Source: Rhodopila sp.
Lineage (GTDB): Bacteria; Pseudomonadota; Alphaproteobacteria; Acetobacterales; Acetobacteraceae
Length of the DNA stretch: 64,000 nt
Assembly (NCBI RefSeq): GCF_035548235.1
Contig: NZ_DASZTJ010000033.1
Span: 18,643 to 82,642 of the forward strand
Direction: 5' to 3'
The translations under genes and the position numbers were made by a program. The notes under the pieces are model-generated. The model was not told the DNA's origin. It ran no database searches and was given only the letters and a program-made list of their open reading frames with translations. This document shows positions 20,298 through 27,570 of the stretch, piece by piece. Within the stretch, counting starts at the first letter, position 1; the number at the start of each line of letters is the position of its first letter.

Positions 20298-20591
20298 TTA
20301 TCTCCCGGAATTCCGGTGAAAGAACTTGCGCAGGCTATCTTTCGCCCGTTCCAATGTGCGTCGGCGATGCATTGGAAGCGTCTTGCCTGCCCTGTTGATA
20401 TAGAAAGTCAGCATAGACATGGCGGAGCGGTATGCACTGCCTTTGCGCCTATCGCTGTGTTCGGCCGACTCCTTCAGCGATTTCGCGATCGTATCTGGAT
20501 CCTTTGACTTGAAAATGTCCTTCTCAAGATCCAGGGCATCGCTGTGCCTGGTGACTTCCCCGGACCAACGAGCCTTGGTTTTCGTCGTCAT
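20298..20591 (-). CDS. DUF3175 family protein
   Basis: WSGEVTRHSDALDLE...SAMSMLTFYINRAG signature; GGGAGAG SD; start re-called at 20591. Confidence 0.88.
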   Translation of the reverse strand: MTTKTKARWSGEVTRHSDALDLEKDIFKSKDPDTIAKSLKESAEHSDRRKGSAYRSAMSMLTFYINRAGKTLPMHRRRTLERAKDSLRKFFHRNSGR

Positions 20592-20620
20592 CGCCGCTCT
20601 CCCTTCGGCTGTACATGGGG

Positions 20621-20646
20621 AACGTAAGGTCCGCCTGGAAAGTTGC
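20621..20646 (-). promoter_or_regulatory. EcfG (general stress sigma)-type promoter for the DUF3175 gene
   Basis: GCAAC-N17-CGTT on the minus strand, close to the GGAAC-N16/17-CGTT consensus. Confidence 0.6.
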
Positions 20647-20692
20647 TTCGCGCCGAACCTCAAGACCCGCTCCTCTCACGGGCAATGTGAAC

Positions 20693-20717
20693 GCAACCCA
20701 GTCGAAAGCCCGCCGTT
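20693..20717 (+). promoter_or_regulatory. EcfG-type promoter for the KGG stress protein
   Basis: GCAAC-N16-CGTT, 54 nt before the ATG. Confidence 0.6.
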
Positions 20718-20771
20718 GCCTAGGAGCGAGGTGGCCGCAATGCCACCGAGAAGAAAGAAGGAGGTACAGCC

Positions 20772-20990
20772 ATGGCCGATCAAAGGCATTCTGGTAACCC
20801 CGGCAACTTTGCGGAAGACCGCGAGAAGGCAGCGAAGGCCGGGCATGTCGGTGGCCAGCACAGCAGCGGCAACTTCGGCAATGATCGCGAGCGCGCGGCC
20901 GAAGCAGGCCGCAAGGGCGGCCAGGCCAGTTCCGGCGGCTCCCATGAGCAGCACGTAAAGGCTGGTCAGCAAAGCCACAAGAACACCTGA
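20772..20990 (+). CDS. KGG-repeat general stress protein (YciG/GsiB-like)
   Basis: GNFAEDREKAAKAG and GNFGNDRERAAEAGRKGG repeats; GGAGG SD. Confidence 0.92.
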   Translation: MADQRHSGNPGNFAEDREKAAKAGHVGGQHSSGNFGNDRERAAEAGRKGGQASSGGSHEQHVKAGQQSHKNT

Positions 20991-21002
20991 ACACGTGACG
21001 AC

Positions 21003-21035
21003 GACCCTGCGCTTCAACGCCTGAGGCGCAGGGTC
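21003..21035 (+). terminator. 14-bp stem-loop after the KGG gene (no U-tract)
   Basis: GACCCTGCGCTTCA-ACGCC-TGAGGCGCAGGGTC with one G-U pair. Confidence 0.45.
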
Positions 21036-21139
21036 ATTCAAGCCTTCGAGCGGATACGCTCATATCTGCATGATGTCATCCGCGCGAGTGGCTTCCCGAC
21101 TGCATCGATCCCCCTCCATCTCCATTCGATGAGGCGAAA

Positions 21140-22930
21140 ATGGCCGAGAACGTCTCCGACTTCTTTTGGAAGCGGCTTCACGAGTGGGGAGTCCGCTGCG
21201 TCTTCGGGTACCCCGGCGACGGTATCAACGGTCTGCTTGGCGGCCTGCAGCGCCTGGGGGAAGACAAGATTCGCTTCGTCCAGGTGCGTCATGAGGAAAT
21301 GGCCGCCTTCATGGCGTCGGCATATGCCAAATTCACCGGTGAACTTGGTGTCTGCATCGCGACGTCCGGCCCAGGGGCATCGCACCTGATTACGGGCCTT
21401 TACGATGCAAGGCTGGACCATATGCCGGTCCTGGCGATCGCGGGGCAGCAGGCCCGCACGGCCGTCGGGGGGCATTACCAGCAGGAACTCGATCTCGTCA
21501 GCCTGTTCAAGGACGTCGCTGGCGCCTTCGTTTATCAGGCAAGCATGCCGGCTCAGGTCAGGCACCTGATCGACCGTGCCGTCCGCATTGCAGTGGGCGA
21601 GCGGCGGGTGACGGCCCTCGTGATGCCGAATGACCTTCAGGAAGACGAATACACGCCGCCCCCGCGTAAGCACGGAACGGTGCATTCCGGCGTCGGCTAC
21701 GCCGAACCGAAAGTCGTGCCGTATGAAGTGCATCTCCGCAGGGCGGCCGATGTGCTCAACGCCGGCAAGCGTGTCGCCATCCTTGTCGGCGCCGGCGCAC
21801 TGGGTGCGACGGACGAGGTCATTTCGGTTGCGGAGCGCCTCAACGCCGGCGTGGCGAAAGCGTTGCTGGGAAAGGCGGTAGTGCCGGACGATCTGCCATG
21901 GGTCACTGGCTCCATCGGCCTGCTTGGCACCAAGCCGAGCTGGGAAATGATGACCGATTGCGACACGTTGCTGATGATCGGATCTGGTTTTCCTTATTCC
22001 GAGTTCTTGCCGAAGGAAGGCGGCGCGCGCGGCGTGCAGATCGACATCGACCCGGGCATGCTCAGCGTCCGTTATCCGATGGAGGTCAACCTGGTCGGCG
22101 ACAGCGCGGAGACGTTGCGAGCCTTGTTGCCCATGCTGCAGCAGAAGGACGATCACGGTTGGCGTCAGCAGATCGAGAAGAACGTCGCCGCCTGGTGGAA
22201 GGACCTCGAGGCAAGAGCCCATGTCGACGCCAAGCCGGTCAACCCGCAGCGTGTGACCTGGGAGCTTTCCCCACGCTTGCCTGAACGGGCGATCATTACC
22301 AGCGACTCCGGCTCCTGTGCCAATTGGTACGCACGCGATCTGAAAATCCGCCGCGGCATGATGTGTTCGCTGTCCGGCGGACTCGCCTCTATGGGCGCGG
22401 CCGTACCTTACGCAATCGCCGCGAAGATCGGGCATCCGGATCGGCCGGTCATCGCTCTGGTCGGCGATGGCGCCATGCAGATGAACAACATGGCAGAGCT
22501 GATCACCGTCTCGAAATACTGGCGGGAATGGTCCGACCCGCGCTGGGTCGTATGCGTTTTCAACAACCAGGACCTCAACCAGGTGACCTGGGAGCAGCGC
22601 GTGATCAACGGCAACCCGAAATTCAGCGCCACGCAGCAGATACCCAACGTGCCGTATCACCGCTTCGCTGAACTGATCGGACTGCGCGGTATCTACGTCG
22701 ATACGCCGGACAGTCTTGGCGCGGCCTGGCAGGAGGCATTGGCGTCCGACCGGCCCGTCGTGCTGGAAGTCAAGACCGACCCCGAGGTGCCGCCCCTGCC
22801 GCCTCACATCACATTGGACCAGGCCCGCAAGTTCACCTCGATGCTGGCGAAGGGCGACCCCGACGAAGGCAACATGATGCTGGGGACCGCGAAGGAAGTG
22901 CTGGCGTCCATGCTGCCTGATCGCCGTTGA
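21140..22930 (+). CDS. Thiamine pyrophosphate-dependent enzyme (pyruvate oxidase/decarboxylase-like)
   Basis: FGYPGDG, RHEEMAAF, TSGPG, GDGAMQMN...NN TPP motif. Confidence 0.92.
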   Translation: MAENVSDFFWKRLHEWGVRCVFGYPGDGINGLLGGLQRLGEDKIRFVQVRHEEMAAFMASAYAKFTGELGVCIATSGPGASHLITGLYDARLDHMPVLAIAGQQARTAVGGHYQQELDLVSLFKDVAGAFVYQASMPAQVRHLIDRAVRIAVGERRVTALVMPNDLQEDEYTPPPRKHGTVHSGVGYAEPKVVPYEVHLRRAADVLNAGKRVAILVGAGALGATDEVISVAERLNAGVAKALLGKAVVPDDLPWVTGSIGLLGTKPSWEMMTDCDTLLMIGSGFPYSEFLPKEGGARGVQIDIDPGMLSVRYPMEVNLVGDSAETLRALLPMLQQKDDHGWRQQIEKNVAAWWKDLEARAHVDAKPVNPQRVTWELSPRLPERAIITSDSGSCANWYARDLKIRRGMMCSLSGGLASMGAAVPYAIAAKIGHPDRPVIALVGDGAMQMNNMAELITVSKYWREWSDPRWVVCVFNNQDLNQVTWEQRVINGNPKFSATQQIPNVPYHRFAELIGLRGIYVDTPDSLGAAWQEALASDRPVVLEVKTDPEVPPLPPHITLDQARKFTSMLAKGDPDEGNMMLGTAKEVLASMLPDRR

Positions 22931-22933
22931 TCC

Positions 22934-23836
22934 ATGGCGGCACGGCTCAGTCTGTCGGAGATGCGTCAGGAGCTCGATAGCCTGTCAACGTCGCTTCAGC
23001 ATGCGGAGGCCTATGACGGAGCGACGTTGCGGGCGGCACGGCGTCTGAACCGCGCATCAGGCCTGCTGGCGACATCGGTCCTGCTGGACAGCGCTGTGGA
23101 GCACGACCGGGGCGGCTTCGAAAACCGCGCCATGTACATCCCGCTGGTCGTTTCAACCCTGGTGCTGGCTGTCAGCGCGCATGGAACCGCGGACAGGCGC
23201 CCCGCATCGCACAGGATGCGGCAGATCGTCTACGGCGTGAGCGCAGCGACAGGGGTGTTGGGGACGAGCTTCCATCTGTACAACGTGTTGAAGCGCCCCG
23301 GCGCGTGGTCCTGGCAGAACCTCTTTTACGGTGCGCCGCTGGGAGCGCCGTTTGCGATCCTGTTGGCCGGTCTTCTGGGTTCGGCGGCAGAGCACGCCCG
23401 CGACAACCCGCCGTCACGCGCGCGAATCCTGGGGTTTCCGGCGGGACGGTTCATCGGCGCCATCAGCGGCGTGGGGATGCTTGGGACGACCGCCGAAGCC
23501 GGACTGCTGCATTTTCGCGGCGCCTTCCACAATCCGGCCATGCTGGCCCCGGTGACGATGCCCCCCGTGGGCGCCGCGCTTCTGCTGAATGCCGTCATGG
23601 GACCGAAGGGGAGAGACCGCCGCGTGGCACGCTGGTGGCTGCGGCTGGTCGCCTGGATGGGGTTCGCCGGCGTCGGCTTCCATGTTTTCGGCGTGCAGCG
23701 CAACATGGGCGGGTGGTCCAACTGGCGGCAGAACCTGCTCAACGGTCCCCCGATTCCAGCGCCGCCCAGCTTCGCCAGTCTCGCGTTGGCTGGGCTGGCG
23801 GCATTGGGCCTGCTGGAAGACCACCCCGATGGATGA
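22934..23836 (+). CDS. Membrane protein, internally duplicated (2 x 4 TM), conserved His
   Basis: EHDRGGFENRAM vs LHFRGAFHNPAM; FHLYNV...WSWQNL vs FHVFGV...WSNWRQNL. Confidence 0.8.
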   Translation: MAARLSLSEMRQELDSLSTSLQHAEAYDGATLRAARRLNRASGLLATSVLLDSAVEHDRGGFENRAMYIPLVVSTLVLAVSAHGTADRRPASHRMRQIVYGVSAATGVLGTSFHLYNVLKRPGAWSWQNLFYGAPLGAPFAILLAGLLGSAAEHARDNPPSRARILGFPAGRFIGAISGVGMLGTTAEAGLLHFRGAFHNPAMLAPVTMPPVGAALLLNAVMGPKGRDRRVARWWLRLVAWMGFAGVGFHVFGVQRNMGGWSNWRQNLLNGPPIPAPPSFASLALAGLAALGLLEDHPDG

Positions 23837-24470
23837 ACGCTATCCCGGCTACGACGTCCTGGCGAAGCGAAACACGCCGTCCTGGAACGTCCAGACGCGC
23901 CGTGTCATCGACCGGCGTCTCGCCGTGCCGCGGGAACCCAGGTTTTTCTCGCAAGCCGAATTTCGGACGCTGGAGGCAATCGCCGCGCGTATCGTGCCCC
24001 AGCCGCCGGACAGGCCGCCTGTTCCCGTCGCGGCATTGATCGACGACAGAATGGTCCGGCAGCAGCACGACGGATATCGGCCGCCGCATATGCCGCGCGA
24101 CGACGAGGCCTGGAAGCTCGGCCTGCGGGCGATCGATGCCGAAGCCGAAGCCTTATGCGGCGCCGCCTTTCATCGGCTCCATTCCGCCCGGAAAGATGAG
24201 GTCCTGCAGCACATCGAGCGGGGCGGCGGCAATCGGTCGGAATGGGGCGGGATGCCGTCTCGCACGTTCTTCCACCAGCGGCTGGTGGCGGACATCGTGC
24301 GCGCCTACTGGTCGCATCCGGCGGCCTGGAGCGAGATCGGCTGGGGCGGTCCGGCAAGTCCGCGCGGGTATGTCCGCATGGGCTACGACCGGCGAGACCC
24401 GTGGGAGGCCGTGGAGGCCCATCCCCATGACTATGATGCGACCAGGAAGGCGAACCGGCGTGTCGGGTGA
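23829..24470 (+). CDS. Gluconate 2-dehydrogenase subunit 3 family protein (no Tat signal)
   Basis: TLEAIAARIVP, AYWSHPAAWSEIGWGGPA; overlaps both neighbours. Confidence 0.82.
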   Translation: MDERYPGYDVLAKRNTPSWNVQTRRVIDRRLAVPREPRFFSQAEFRTLEAIAARIVPQPPDRPPVPVAALIDDRMVRQQHDGYRPPHMPRDDEAWKLGLRAIDAEAEALCGAAFHRLHSARKDEVLQHIERGGGNRSEWGGMPSRTFFHQRLVADIVRAYWSHPAAWSEIGWGGPASPRGYVRMGYDRRDPWEAVEAHPHDYDATRKANRRVG

Positions 24471-26103
24471 CCCGTTCTCAACGCCGCGCGGCAGGGGCGG
24501 CCGCGCCCCGGATGTCTTCCGGCCCGGCGGTTGGATGCCGATGCGGCGTTATGCACACTCCGACGAGGTCGACTTCTTGATCGTCGGCACTGGCGCGGGT
24601 GGCGCCACGCTCGGCTGCCGGCTGGCTAAAATGGGATTCTCCGTCGTCGGTCTGGATGCCGGACCTTGGTTTCGGCCGCTGGAGGATTTTGCATCCGACG
24701 AGGCGGAGCAGGCGAAACTGTACTGGACCGACGACCGGATCTCCGGCGGCGACAATCCGGTTCAGCTTGGCGCCAACAACAGCGGCAAGGCGGTTGGCGG
24801 CAGTACCGTCCATTTTGCCATGGTCTCCCTGCGCTTCAGGCCGGAGTGGTTCAAGTCCCGCACCCTGCTGGGTTACGGAGCCGACTGGCCCGTCGATTGG
24901 CAGGAGATGTGGTCCTATTACCGTCAGGTCGAGGAAGCGCTGATGATCAGCGGTCCGCTGACCTATCCCTGGGGACCGAAGCGACCGAGCTATCCGTATC
25001 GTGCGCATGAACTCAATGCGGCGGCGCTCGCGCTGGCCGAGGGCTGCGAGGCGATGGGCATCGCCTGGACCGAGACGCCGCTGGCGACTTTGTCGGCGCC
25101 CCGCGGCCTGGCGCATCCCTGCGTTTACCGCGGCTTCTGCGTGTCCGGATGCTCGACCAACGCCAAGCAGAGTGCGCTGGTCACCTGGATTCCCCGCGCG
25201 GTGGCGGCCGGTGCGGAAATCCGGGACCTGGCGATGGCGGGCCGCATTGAAATGGGGCAGGCGGGCCGGGTGACGGGCGTTCACTACCATCGCGAAGGGC
25301 GCTGGCATTTCCAACGGGCACGGAACGTCGTTGTTGCCGGTTACGCGATCGAAACGCCAAGGTTATTGCTGAACTCGGCGACAGACCGCTACCCGCATGG
25401 GCTGGCGAATAGCTCCGGCCTGGTCGGACGGTATTTCACCGTGCAGGCGAACCAGGCAGTCTGGGGCGTTTCCCCCCGGGAAATCCGTGGATACAAGGGG
25501 CCGCCGTCGTTGGCCCTGACGGAGCACTGGAATTACGACGACAGCAAGGATTTCTTCGGCGGCTACTGTTACATGAGCCAAGGACCGTTGCCGCAGCTCT
25601 GGGCCAATACTGTCGCGAACGGTCGCGGTTTCTGGGGTGACCGTCTGATGGCGGCGATGAAGGACTACAATCACCAGGTCGGATTGAAGATCGTCGGCGA
25701 AATGATGCCGCAGGAGCGGAATCGCGTCACGCTTGCGGATGAAACCGATCAGTACGGCCTTCGCATCGCCAGTGTCGAGTATAGCTGGTGCGACAATGAC
25801 AAAGCCCTGATCGACCACTCCTTGAAGTTCATGTCGCAAGCGCTGCAGGCCATTGACTGCCGCGACATCTGGTCCCAGACCGACGACACTTGCCATATGA
25901 ACGGCACCGCGCGCATGGGGGATGATCCGCGCACCAGCGTGGTCGATGCGGATTGCCGAAGCTGGGACATACGCAATCTGTGGATTTGCGACGGGTCTGT
26001 CTTTCCTACCGTCGGCGGCGTGAACCCGTCGTTGACCATCCAGGCGATCGCCTGCCGCACTGCCGACCGGATCCGCTTATTATCGTCTCGCGGCGAACTT
26101 TAA
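24460..26103 (+). CDS. GMC family FAD oxidoreductase with CX5CX3C Fe-S motif
   Basis: IVGTGAGG Rossmann fold, CVYRGFCVSGC, HMNGTARMG, DGSVFPT; GTG start inferred. Confidence 0.9.
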   Translation: MSGDPFSTPRGRGGRAPDVFRPGGWMPMRRYAHSDEVDFLIVGTGAGGATLGCRLAKMGFSVVGLDAGPWFRPLEDFASDEAEQAKLYWTDDRISGGDNPVQLGANNSGKAVGGSTVHFAMVSLRFRPEWFKSRTLLGYGADWPVDWQEMWSYYRQVEEALMISGPLTYPWGPKRPSYPYRAHELNAAALALAEGCEAMGIAWTETPLATLSAPRGLAHPCVYRGFCVSGCSTNAKQSALVTWIPRAVAAGAEIRDLAMAGRIEMGQAGRVTGVHYHREGRWHFQRARNVVVAGYAIETPRLLLNSATDRYPHGLANSSGLVGRYFTVQANQAVWGVSPREIRGYKGPPSLALTEHWNYDDSKDFFGGYCYMSQGPLPQLWANTVANGRGFWGDRLMAAMKDYNHQVGLKIVGEMMPQERNRVTLADETDQYGLRIASVEYSWCDNDKALIDHSLKFMSQALQAIDCRDIWSQTDDTCHMNGTARMGDDPRTSVVDADCRSWDIRNLWICDGSVFPTVGGVNPSLTIQAIACRTADRIRLLSSRGEL

Positions 26104-26343: not shown

Positions 26344-27570
26344 GTGAGCAGCGTCGCCGGGCTTGGCCCCGCCGTGGCGGCGGCGCACAGGAAGGGCGCG
26401 AAACCTCGGAGACCAAGGCGGCTCGCCGCAATCCTGGATCTGGATGATTTCGAACGCGCGGCGAGGCCCAGGCTGCCAGCGGCCGTGTATGGCTACGTGG
26501 CGCATGGTGCGGAGACGGAGACGACGTTGAGGGCAAACCGAGCGGCGTTCGATGCATGGCGGCTGGTGACACGAGTGCTTGCCGGGGTGGAGGAGCGGCG
26601 CCAGGACATCCAACTCTTTGGCCGTCGCTATGATGCGCCGTTTGGCATCGCCCCGATGGGCGGCAGTGCGCTGGTCGCCTACCAGGGTCACACCGTGATG
26701 GCCCAGGCGGCGGCCAGTGCGAAAATCCCTTTCATCCTGAGTGCCAATTCGATCATTCCATTGGAAGAAGTCGCCGAGGCGAATCCCGGCCTTTGGTTCG
26801 CGGCCTATCAATCCCCCGATCAGGCCGCCATCGAAGGCATGGTCGAACGCATATCTCGCGCTGGCGTCGGCGCGTTGGTGGTGACGGCGGATGTGCCCAT
26901 CGGATCCAATCGGGAAGCCGATGCAAGGGCAGGCTTCGGATTTCCGATCCGTCCGAACTGGGAACTGGGTTGGGACGTGGCGACACATCCCCGGTGGCTG
27001 GTCTCTGTCCTGGGCCGCACAGTGCTGAAACGCAGGAATCCCCACATCGACAACCTGGAGCCGTGGGGCGGCCCGGGCCTATTCTCCCGGGAAGTCGCGG
27101 GTATCGCGGCACATGAGGCGTTACGCTGGCGCCATATCCAGATGATACGCGAATTGTGGAAGGGCCCTTTGATCATCAAGGGCATCCTGTCGGCCGACGA
27201 CGCCGTAATCGCTCGGGACTACGGAGCGGACGGCATCATCCTGTCCAATCATGGCGGCCGTCAGCTCGATCAGGCGGTAGCGCCATTGCAGGTCCTGCCG
27301 AAGATCTTGAAGCGAGCCAGTGGTTTGACGGTCATGATGGATAGCGGGGTACGCAGGGGAACTGACGTCATCAAAGCCCTGGCCTTGGGGGCGGACGCGG
27401 TCTTCGTGGGGAGGCCTTTCCTGTTTGCCGCGGCGTACGGCGGCCAAGCGGGCGTCGGGCATGCGATCTCACTGCTGTCGAAGGAAATCGATCGGGACAT
27501 GGCGATGCTCGGCGTACGCCGGATCGAGGAAATCGGTCCGGAGATGCTGCACAGCATGTCGGATGGCTAA
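26344..27570 (+). CDS. FMN-dependent alpha-hydroxy acid oxidase (LldD-like); start uncertain
   Basis: APFGIAPMG, IIKGIL, SNHGGRQLD, DSGVRRGTD. Confidence 0.88.
   Translation: MSSVAGLGPAVAAAHRKGAKPRRPRRLAAILDLDDFERAARPRLPAAVYGYVAHGAETETTLRANRAAFDAWRLVTRVLAGVEERRQDIQLFGRRYDAPFGIAPMGGSALVAYQGHTVMAQAAASAKIPFILSANSIIPLEEVAEANPGLWFAAYQSPDQAAIEGMVERISRAGVGALVVTADVPIGSNREADARAGFGFPIRPNWELGWDVATHPRWLVSVLGRTVLKRRNPHIDNLEPWGGPGLFSREVAGIAAHEALRWRHIQMIRELWKGPLIIKGILSADDAVIARDYGADGIILSNHGGRQLDQAVAPLQVLPKILKRASGLTVMMDSGVRRGTDVIKALALGADAVFVGRPFLFAAAYGGQAGVGHAISLLSKEIDRDMAMLGVRRIEEIGPEMLHSMSDG

Follow-up and report, generated by a model that had tools for sequence, protein, structure and literature searches.

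Fe–S flavoprotein dehydrogenases acting on glucose, fructose, sorbitol and gluconate are periplasmic enzymes of oxidative fermentation, and they underlie direct-electron-transfer biosensors, including glucose sensors. Their defining architecture is a catalytic subunit, a Tat hitchhiker and a cytochrome c. The FAD-glucose dehydrogenase of Burkholderia cepacia (BcGDH; 6A2U) and the fructose dehydrogenase of Gluconobacter (7W2J) are direct-electron-transfer, FAD-dependent complexes, and the locus described here has the GMC catalytic subunit in common with both. A second comparison, by functional analogy only and with no sequence or fold relationship found to the membrane protein of this locus, is with the SdhCD/FrdCD anchors, where electrons pass from a cytoplasm-side flavoprotein through a terminal 3Fe–4S cluster to a membrane partner that holds a bis-His haem b and/or a quinone site. 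BcGDH itself has been compared with fumarate reductase (PMC6719666). The present locus belongs to an unstudied but widespread version of the Fe–S flavoprotein sugar dehydrogenases, carried by hundreds of soil Alpha- and Gammaproteobacteria. Judged from its sequences, this lineage appears to have lost the export signal and the cytochrome c, and to have gained an unrelated membrane partner.

Four genes lie in the same direction on the + strand at positions 21140–26103 of the window, the whole 64-kb stretch of DNA analysed. They encode a thiamine-diphosphate enzyme (TPP; 21140–22930, 596 residues, stop TGA at 22928–22930), a membrane protein (MEM; 22934–23836, 300 residues, ATG at 22934, stop at 23834–23836), a gamma-type small subunit (GAM; 23829–24470, 213 residues, ATG at 23829, stop at 24468–24470) and the catalytic subunit (GMC; 24460–26103, 547 residues from GTG 24460, with an alternative ATG at 24535). 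Families of the open reading frames were confirmed by Pfam and NCBIfam searches. The tight coupling reported in the first-pass annotation was found again when the open reading frames were re-checked: TPP and MEM are separated by 3 nt, MEM and GAM overlap by 8 nt (ATGGATGA), and GAM and GMC overlap by 11 nt, counted from GTG 24460. Its statement that no cytochrome c gene is present also holds for the 64-kb window, since CXXCH is absent from every open frame of at least 90 residues.

The arrangement is far beyond chance, as about 80 loci in other genomes repeat the same gene order. MEM, GAM and GMC occur together in 73 of the 75 related loci with enough flanking sequence, drawn from Alpha- and Gammaproteobacteria, and the commonest spacing between the MEM stop and the GAM start across loci is an 8-nt overlap. 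More distant members, with 39–40% MEM identity, retain both the order and the motifs. The earlier description of a four-gene operon is accurate for the window, but the window operon is a local form of a conserved operon that most commonly has five genes, with an enolase-superfamily gene between TPP and MEM (TPP-MRMLE-MEM-GAM-GMC, 39 of 68 loci). The order TPP-MEM-GAM-GMC, as in the window, was found at 11 of the 68. The enolase-superfamily gene is absent from the window, and the genome carries only enolase-superfamily paralogues of at most 34% identity.

GMC contains PF00732 and PF05199 and matches the BcGDH alpha subunit (6A2U_B; E 1.2e-47 over residues 35–539) and the fructose dehydrogenase large subunit (7W2J_A; E 3.5e-40). 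Translation most likely starts at GTG 24460, which lies about 8 nt downstream of AGGAAGG; the 25 residues ahead of the first in-frame ATG (24535) are conserved at the protein level in about 75 orthologues. This conserved N-terminal extension, DPxxxPRxxxGRAPDVFRPGGW, is free of signal-peptide features. The CX5CX3C motif CVYRGFCVSGC, already picked out in the first-pass annotation, is located at residues 221–231 (25120–25152, + strand) and supplies candidate 3Fe–4S ligands. Its residues C221, C227 and C231 pair in the alignment with BcGDH C212, C218 and C222, which ligate a surface 3Fe–4S cluster, and C213 of BcGDH is the disulfide partner of the gamma subunit (PMC6719666). The inter-subunit disulfide cysteine is missing in GMC, where the C213 position is Val222. 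CX5CX3C is kept in 78 of 79 GMC orthologues, and by this correspondence GMC probably carries a 3Fe–4S cluster, from whose surface position electrons would be expected to exit to a membrane-bound partner, as in the BcGDH type. Three residues, H118, H479 and N522, do not vary across 40 orthologues. Of these, H118 aligns in the VGGSTVHFA / VGGTTWHWA block that contains the FAD-proximal His105 of BcGDH, whose density is continuous with that of FAD (PMC6719666). For H479 and N522, the aligned BcGDH residues are an active-site His and Asn, and the two may be the counterpart of its His/Asn catalytic pair.

As in the BcGDH type, a PF13618 small subunit is encoded directly upstream of GMC. GAM matches this family (Gluconate_2-dh3) with 81 bits against a cut-off of 23.4; the family is named after FAD gluconate 2-dehydrogenases, which presumably belong to the same group as BcGDH and fructose dehydrogenase. 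In a fold comparison with 48,161 PDB chains, the BcGDH gamma subunit (6a2u_A) ranked first, but weakly (Z 3.8, rmsd 3.7, 88 residues aligned). Unlike the small subunit of the BcGDH type, GAM was correctly said in the first-pass annotation to have no Tat signal: on inspection of the N-termini, neither the window copy nor any of 80 orthologues showed a twin-arginine motif followed by a hydrophobic h-region. All GAM orthologues begin within a few residues of a conserved RYPGYDVLxKRxxPSWN segment, and a paralogous PF13618 gene in the same genome does have RRRFLRQS. A longer open frame upstream of the GAM start is merely an alternative frame of the MEM gene. A further block of GAM, SPRGYVR (177–183), is invariant.

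In contrast to the BcGDH type, with its multihaem cytochrome c subunit, the locus encodes MEM directly upstream of GAM. It is a polytopic protein of eight helices arranged in two homologous four-helix halves, which are 32% identical to each other (E 2e-12); the AF2 model has a pLDDT of 88.5 and a pTM of 0.85. MEM has no Pfam or NCBIfam match, and 18 of its relatives likewise have no Pfam match. Foldseek against the PDB gave no informative match (best E 0.12), VIA-align returned only generic four-helix bundles (best Z 12.6 over one half), and no paper describing MEM was found in the literature. The family comprises 602 clusters at 50% identity.

Four histidines of MEM, H57 (23102–23104), H114 (23273–23275), H193 (23510–23512) and H250 (23681–23683), whose codons span 23102–23683 on the + strand, are invariant in alignments of 19 distant sequences (A2) and 40 orthologues (A3). 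In order, they lie in the motifs SxxEH-Y-R-G, GxxGxxFH, ExxLLH-F-R-G and GxxGxxFH. They sit on helices 1, 3, 5 and 7, the first and third helices of the two bundles, with an Arg two residues past each helix-1 His and Gly at −4 and −7 from each helix-3 His. Unlike SdhCD/FrdCD, MEM is one polypeptide in which a four-helix bundle is duplicated, and its four His all lie near one face; the window system also has no separate iron–sulfur subunit.

An interaction of MEM with the dehydrogenase subunits was modelled. The three-chain MEM–GAM–GMC model reached an ipSAE of 0.65 (runs 0.66, 0.62 and 0.65), against 0.00 for the best of three controls. This value is the model's own confidence. In calibration, 58 of 80 solved complexes passed the mark, as did 2 of 110 mismatched pairs; the calibration is only roughly valid here, because three chains and custom alignments were used. 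At least 93% of contacts were common to the runs, with partner pLDDT of at least 77. The score is unlikely to reflect memorised structures, because no solved complex has a MEM-like protein. In the model, the GMC Fe–S loop and the invariant GAM block are placed against a conserved face of MEM, beside the four invariant His. The predicted MEM interface comprises residues 59–61, 122–132, 194–200 and 253–270, flanked by these His, and it meets GMC residues 212–215, 219–222, 233 and 235, around CX5CX3C, and GAM P17 and SPRGYVR. On all three proteins, the interface is made of invariant residues.

Taken with the gene linkage, it is considered fairly probable that the operon encodes a membrane-bound MEM–GAM–GMC dehydrogenase, probably on the cytoplasmic side, which works in the same pathway as a PoxB-like TPP enzyme. 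The basis of this explanation is the observed gene order, conservation, absence of signals, and Cys and His conservation; the MEM–GAM–GMC interface comes from the model, and we infer the cofactor, sidedness, substrate and pathway order. GMC, with FAD and a probable 3Fe–4S cluster, GAM and MEM would form one dehydrogenase in which MEM holds the place of the multihaem cytochrome c subunit of the classical periplasmic enzymes and most probably replaces it as electron acceptor. The GMC Fe–S loop would lie next to two MEM His pairs, one per four-helix bundle, and electrons would travel from the substrate via FAD and 3Fe–4S to a cofactor site in MEM and on to the quinone pool. For the MEM site, the likeliest candidates are a bis-His haem b and a quinone site, alone or together. 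A different membrane electron acceptor had been proposed in the first-pass annotation; MEM, linked at 73 of 75 loci and docked on the Fe–S loop, fits that role, and the electron transfer itself stays a prediction.

MEM might instead be non-redox, acting as a scaffold or anchor, or as a substrate or product permease, that tethers GMC–GAM while quinone takes electrons straight from the 3Fe–4S cluster at the lipid interface. PoxB-type enzymes do reduce quinone with no anchor at all. The sequence and fold searches gave MEM no match to a known haem- or quinone-binding family or anchor (SdhCD, FrdCD, cytochrome b561/CybB, NarI, FdnI), and its two parallel four-helix repeats, with polar D52, S53, E56 and E188 in the helices, could line a transport path. 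Such a role is nevertheless judged unlikely: all four His are kept in relatives with as little as about 39% identity, the Gly spacing is typical of haem-packing helices, and the His lie at the face predicted to meet the Fe–S loop. Moreover, a MEM paralogue that does not adjoin GAM–GMC has lost three of the four.

The membrane side of this complex is a point of conflict. GAM, GMC and the enzymes encoded beside them are without export signals, and the complex is therefore most probably on the cytoplasmic side, unlike BcGDH. The positive-inside rule points the other way. Each MEM protein has about 7.5 Lys and Arg on the model-docked face and about 13–16 on the opposite face, and in many orthologues helix 1 is preceded by an additional hydrophobic helix at the N-terminus and then a linker containing 6–9 Arg/Lys; by this rule the docking face would be periplasmic. 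The rule is not decisive for MEM, because the two faces differ little in net charge. The cytoplasm-facing dehydrogenase of the first-pass annotation thus keeps the missing export signals as its one basis and has the charge distribution of MEM against it, and this conflict between predicted docking face and positive-inside rule is itself a testable question.

If the charge distribution is followed, the complex would face the periplasm like its classical relatives, and GAM–GMC would be exported by an unrecognised route, such as hitchhiking on a Tat substrate encoded elsewhere. The characterised relatives are all periplasmic (PMC6719666), and genes for terminal oxidases or multihaem cytochromes lie a few kb away in about ten loci. 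A periplasmic complex is nonetheless judged improbable, because a protein that folds around FAD and Fe–S requires Tat to cross the membrane, and neither Tat nor Sec signals occur on GAM or GMC (about 80 orthologues) or on any other operon protein, the co-operonic GH15, enolase-superfamily and TPP enzymes included. In addition, where gamma subunits carry the signal, GAM has a conserved segment, which touches MEM in the model. If the cytoplasmic placement is right, the lineage would show how a respiratory module of the periplasm can be rewired to the opposite membrane side.

The TPP enzyme contains all three TPP-enzyme Pfam domains (N, M and C) and scores 1094.5 bits against NF006129 (PRK08273; cut-off 724). 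Its closest solved relative is E. coli PoxB, the pyruvate:ubiquinone oxidoreductase (3EY9/3EYA), with which it shares the three-domain TPP flavoenzyme architecture in an end-to-end alignment (E 4.3e-87 to 3EY9; residues 2–569 with 2–550 of 572). The alignment includes the segment before the lipid-binding C-terminal peptide: PPHITLDQARKF pairs with PPQIKLEQAKGF of 3EY9, directly ahead of the peptide by which PoxB binds the membrane. The window enzyme differs from PoxB in belonging to the separate NCBIfam equivalog NF006129, with a score far below cut-off on the PoxB equivalog model PRK09124 (386.6 bits; cut-off 792), and in being encoded with the GMC complex, usually together with the enolase-superfamily enzyme. 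On this similarity, TPP appears to be a PoxB-like thiamine-diphosphate flavoenzyme that keeps the PoxB-type C-terminus, with membrane binding predicted. The first-pass annotation had tied a TPP decarboxylase/oxidase to the dehydrogenase; the link stands, but the PoxB likeness indicates a quinone-linked oxidase type and not a plain decarboxylase.

TPP adjoins the cluster in 53 of the 68 loci with both flanks, across two proteobacterial classes, and at three loci it lies on the other side of the MEM–GAM–GMC triad. Among 151 Acetobacteraceae genomes, NF006129 scored above cut-off in 38 of the 43 with MEM and in 12 of the 108 without; two more MEM-positive genomes have a split NF006129 copy beside MEM. 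TPP is not an obligate part of the operon, being missing from 13 of the 68 loci and present without MEM in those 12 genomes. Both exceptions would be expected if the genes were merely co-transcribed and the TPP enzyme and GMC complex served unrelated pathways. That reading is regarded as very improbable, given the strong co-occurrence of TPP with MEM and a recurrent adjacency that spans two classes, sometimes changes side and is translationally coupled. In the shared pathway preferred here, the PoxB-like enzyme would be a second, peripheral quinone-linked dehydrogenase, which plausibly carries out oxidative decarboxylation of a 2-oxo acid made by GMC or arising downstream.

A more far-reaching proposal, held only tentatively and with more doubt than belief, is that MEM represents a new class of respiratory anchor, with a bis-His haem b in each of its two duplicated four-helix bundles, both haems close to one membrane face, linking a cytoplasm-facing dehydrogenase, and possibly a PoxB-like enzyme, to the quinone pool. 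The operon would then encode an undescribed quinone-linked pathway from a sugar acid to a 2-oxo acid and on to oxidative TPP-dependent decarboxylation, with the lactonase, short-chain dehydrogenase, GH15 and enolase-superfamily neighbours taking part. Such a pathway could, for example, run from gluconate through 2-ketogluconate to a pentonate. Independently of this proposal, the lineage would provide a function for a membrane family of about 600 clusters (50% identity) matched by no Pfam or NCBIfam model, and a first functional context for the 'thiamine pyrophosphate-requiring protein' NF006129 and for the structural-genomics protein 3CYJ.

The latter, a Rubrobacter-type enolase-superfamily protein, is likened to the fifth gene of the family operon and not to a window gene: the operon's enolase-superfamily protein from other loci matches 3CYJ with E 6e-117, and among named models it comes closest to acid-sugar dehydratases, with every score under cut-off. 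Neighbouring genes were compared by clustering open reading frames over 80 loci and searching one representative per cluster against Pfam. Clusters of a short-chain dehydrogenase (28 loci), a GH15 glycosidase (14) and an SMP-30/gluconolactonase (13) were found, and these neighbours point to sugar or sugar-acid catabolism. At one locus (L091), a GH15 gene without a signal overlaps the GMC stop.

Four open reading frames, all in one direction, occupy positions 21140-26103. The first encodes a thiamine-diphosphate enzyme (TPP, 21140-22930), and the gene of a 300-residue membrane protein (MEM, 22934-23836) begins 3 nt past the TPP stop codon. The gene of the gamma-type small subunit (GAM), whose start codon is the ATG at 23829 within ATGGATGA, overlaps the MEM stop codon by 8 nt. 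It is in turn overlapped by 11 nt at its own stop codon by the gene of the flavoprotein catalytic subunit (GMC, 24460-26103), which most likely starts at GTG 24460 with an AGGAAGG box approximately 8 nt upstream; the tight coupling described in the first-pass annotation was thus observed at every junction. The open frame of GMC begins at 24136 and its first obvious ATG is at 24535, but the start was placed at GTG 24460 because the 25 residues ahead of ATG 24535 (DPxxxPRxxxGRAPDVFRPGGW) are conserved as protein in approximately 75 orthologues.

A genome scan with one genome per species, for which the first MEM alignment (A1) was too noisy, produced no fewer than 580 matches. Analysis covered the best 80 loci, which belong to Acetobacteraceae, Bradyrhizobium, Rhodopseudomonas, Xanthobacteraceae, Methylobacteriaceae, Rhodanobacteraceae and Steroidobacteraceae. 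MEM, GAM and GMC occur together in 73 of the 75 loci having enough downstream sequence; the exceptions are L022 and L033, the latter having all the genes in frameshifted form. Both flanks are available for 68 loci, of which 39 have the commonest order (TPP, an enolase-superfamily gene, MEM, GAM and GMC) and 11 share the TPP-MEM-GAM-GMC arrangement of the window. Seven have no TPP and keep the enolase-superfamily gene, six are bare MEM-GAM-GMC triads, three place TPP downstream of the triad, and GAM and GMC went undetected in two (L033 and L022). The commonest MEM/GAM spacing across the loci is the 8-nt overlap. In the window's genome the enolase-superfamily gene is represented only by paralogues, the best of which is 34% identical.

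MEM is found in 43 of 151 Acetobacteraceae genomes. NCBIfam model NF006129 ('thiamine pyrophosphate-requiring protein') scores above its cut-off in 38 of these 43 and in 12 of the 108 MEM-negative genomes, counts that describe a pattern among related genomes and not a statistical test; a split NF006129 copy adjoins MEM in two more of the MEM-positive genomes. An evenly drawn sample of 400 other genomes from the phylum contained only three matches, so the operon has a patchy distribution that is concentrated in a few lineages from soil. The unpublished genome G532 matched in this sample and carries none of the conclusions.

GAM is a PF13618 protein (81 bits) and GMC contains both GMC domains in Pfam. 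[quoted passage not shown] GMC residues C221, C227 and C231 align with BcGDH residues C212, C218 and C222, which are its three 3Fe-4S ligands (PMC6719666), whereas BcGDH C213, which forms a disulfide to the gamma subunit, corresponds to a Val in GMC. A GAM profile recovered no gamma subunit from PDB sequences, and a Foldseek search with the GAM model gave no match.

The MEM-GAM-GMC system probably acts in the manner of DET-type FAD dehydrogenase complexes, with which it has its catalytic subunit, small subunit and cluster ligands in common. It lacks two features that define this class, a Tat signal and a cytochrome c component, and its third subunit belongs to an unnamed family. As the first-pass annotation had claimed, no Tat signal is present on GAM, and inspection of the N-termini extended this to all 80 orthologues, which start no more than 1-15 residues from a conserved RYPGYDVLxKRxxPSWN block. 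The open frames upstream of GAM are the MEM gene in another reading frame, and nothing more. Similarly, the N-terminal extension of GMC contains no hydrophobic region. The claimed lack of a cytochrome c gene also held, as CXXCH occurs in no frame of at least 90 residues in six-frame translation of the entire 64-kb window.

The same genome keeps a second PF13618 gene, on contig C158, with a classical RRRFLRQS Tat signal, and loss of the signal is therefore specific to the MEM-linked lineage. The GMC neighbour in this Tat-type pair (L085:3-2004, minus strand) has a CX5CX3C motif of its own, CLQIGFCFQGC. No CXXCH frame lies beside the pair in the 8.6-kb contig, where the acceptor is likewise unlinked, so the pair offers an incomplete comparison with the canonical form. 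No description of a Tat-less or cytochrome-less member of the DET-type class was found in the open-access full-text literature. The membrane subunit MEM is apparently undescribed.

MEM matched no Pfam or NCBIfam model, and a Pfam search of MEM and 18 relatives (19 sequences) at E-values up to 5 gave scattered single hits only. Its relatives number in thousands, every one annotated as hypothetical, and form 602 clusters at 50% identity. The protein has eight hydrophobic or amphipathic helices, and when its halves are aligned with one another (32% identity, E 2e-12), H193 is the counterpart of H57 and H250 that of H114. A confident AF2 model (pLDDT 88.5, pTM 0.85) consists of two four-helix bundles. 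Foldseek found nothing under E 0.12 in the PDB with this model, VIA-align returned generic four-helix bundles only, and an ESM Atlas shape search returned unnamed Pseudomonadota clusters only.

A three-chain model of MEM (36-298), GAM (1-200) and GMC (4-540), built with a 40-row alignment per chain, gave an ipSAE of 0.65 (runs 0.66, 0.62 and 0.65), whereas none of the three controls exceeded 0.00. Of 80 solved complexes, 58 passed the calibration mark, as did 2 of 110 mismatched pairs; these counts are based on pairs and other alignments and hold only roughly for a three-chain model. At least 93% of contacts were common between runs, and partner pLDDT was at least 77. The model supports binding between MEM, GAM and GMC, short of demonstration.

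On the GMC side, the predicted interface is formed by the cluster-cysteine loop (residues 212-215, 219-222, 233 and 235) and residues 162-205, and on the GAM side by P17 and an invariant SPRGYVR block. MEM would contribute four conserved loops after helices 1, 3, 5 and 7 (59-61, 122-132, 194-200 and 253-270), directly beside four invariant His residues. Because the predicted interface pairs the cluster-cysteine loop with these His-flanking loops, MEM would sit where the acceptor for the candidate 3Fe-4S cluster is expected, a role taken in BcGDH by the cytochrome c subunit (PMC6719666). The earlier proposal of a different membrane acceptor has thereby gained a membrane partner in MEM, the binding itself being a prediction of the model.

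In the alignments, an invariant D/E-x3-(E/L)-H-(Y/F)-R-G motif is found in MEM helices 1 and 5, and G-x2-G-x2-F-H in helices 3 and 7. In membrane cytochromes b, the His ligands of a bis-His haem b site are contributed by every second helix of a bundle, with small residues one and two turns below them and an Arg at the surface. By analogy, the invariant pattern of MEM resembles such a site, although it could equally well mark a quinone site without haem. A divergent MEM paralogue (38% identity; L087:6001-7008 and L088), in which three of the four conserved His residues are missing, lies away from GAM-GMC and directly 3' of cytochrome bo3-type quinol oxidase genes (COX2/COX_ARM, COX1 and COX3).

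As to the side of the membrane on which GAM and GMC dock, the evidence for a cytoplasmic position conflicts with the positive-inside rule. In 84 MEM orthologues, Lys and Arg residues number approximately 7.5 on the docking face and approximately 13, or 16 with helix ends, on the opposite face, a distribution that by this rule predicts a periplasmic docking face. In many orthologues, an additional hydrophobic helix at the N-terminus also precedes a linker with 6-9 basic residues. However, net charge is alike on both faces, nearly all acidic residues lie on the opposite face, and the basic residues of the docking face are invariant and within the predicted interface. Furthermore, GAM and GMC have no export signal in any orthologue, and crossing the membrane with FAD and an Fe-S cluster would require Tat. 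Signals are likewise missing from TPP, from the enolase-superfamily enzyme and from the GH15 glycosidase of locus L091, the gene of which overlaps the stop codon of GMC. Cytochrome c matures in the periplasm only, and its replacement would fit a move to the cytoplasm. The cytoplasm-facing orientation proposed in the first-pass annotation is thus favoured by the missing signals on GAM and GMC and opposed by the Lys and Arg bias of MEM.

The extra N-terminal helix is exemplified by L017:7869-8000, L019:7938-8096 and L039:7866-8000; in Bradyrhizobium it is preceded by ERDL(L/V)ALAG, reminiscent of a degenerate signal peptide, and the window MEM has an amphipathic helix in its place. Two apparent fusions, P0179 (MR_MLE-MEM, MR_MLE being the enolase-superfamily gene) and P0213 (MEM-GAM), were discarded as evidence on MEM orientation because both include garbled, frameshifted stretches. 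In Rhodovulum sp. PH10 (NZ_AKZI01000081.1; L011:8833-11214), GAM and GMC share a single open frame, in which 12 linker residues separate the GAM C-terminus from the conserved N-terminal extension of GMC. The two genes may be naturally fused, or the single frame may be a sequencing error; a real fusion would mean that GAM and GMC act 1:1 in one compartment.

TPP scored 1094.5 bits against NF006129 (cut-off 724) and only 386.6 bits against the PoxB model (cut-off 792). Its nearest solved relative is E. coli PoxB (3EY9, E 4.3e-87). Because this alignment includes the segment just before the lipid-binding C-terminal peptide of PoxB, TPP is judged from its sequence to be a PoxB-like enzyme that is probably quinone-linked.

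Open reading frames no more than 5 kb from the operon were clustered over the 80 loci, and one representative per cluster was checked against Pfam. Short-chain dehydrogenases recur in 28 loci, GH15 glycosidases with a trehalase-like N-domain in 14, and SMP-30/gluconolactonase genes, mostly divergent and directly upstream, in 13. A further cluster (23 loci, no Pfam hit) was dropped because its Arg/Asp/Gly-rich sequence suggests a shadow frame on the antisense strand, possibly opposite the short-chain dehydrogenase genes. The enolase-superfamily protein matches 3CYJ, a structure of unassigned function (E 6e-117), and its nearest named models are acid-sugar dehydratases, all under cut-off. Together, the recurring neighbours and this likeness point to sugar or sugar-acid oxidation.

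A hypothetical five-step order that employs every part can be drawn up, although it is rather unlikely to be correct. A short-chain dehydrogenase would convert a sugar into a lactone, which a lactonase would open to the aldonate. The GMC complex would then oxidise the aldonate to a 2-oxo acid, as in FAD gluconate 2-dehydrogenases, and the PoxB-like enzyme would yield CO2 and an acid with one carbon fewer. Finally, the enolase-superfamily dehydratase would convert the shortened acid into a 2-keto-3-deoxy acid.

A seven-gene version of the operon (L091:3129-11477; Logan SRR28089850) has 1-4 nt overlaps at its six junctions and adjoins caa3-type oxidase genes. Its order is TPP, the enolase-superfamily gene, MEM, GAM, GMC, the signal-less GH15 glycosidase and a 156-residue membrane protein with weak likeness to DUF6789. 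Approximately 10 of the 80 loci, several from Acetobacteraceae, have genes for terminal oxidase subunit I or multihaem cytochrome c7-like proteins 0.1-3 kb away (for example L005:11697-13370, L070:11116-11889 and L037:12632-16267); the latter genes possibly belong to alternative complex III. This proximity may be functional or may reflect the gene neighbourhood of particular lineages.

Within the window, a promoter and terminator scan gave counts close to shuffle expectation and was uninformative. GMC is followed on the plus strand by an LldD-like, FMN-dependent alpha-hydroxy-acid dehydrogenase gene (PF01070, 26158-27570), which occupies this place in none of the related loci; its true start is probably near 26400-26450, because PF01070 begins at residue 102 of the longest frame. 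Upstream, two divergent minus-strand frames encode a DUF3175 protein (20298-20663) and an unassigned 121-residue product (20676-21041). The G+C content of 20.0-21.1 kb is approximately 0.60-0.61, compared with 0.68-0.70 in the preceding methylase region.
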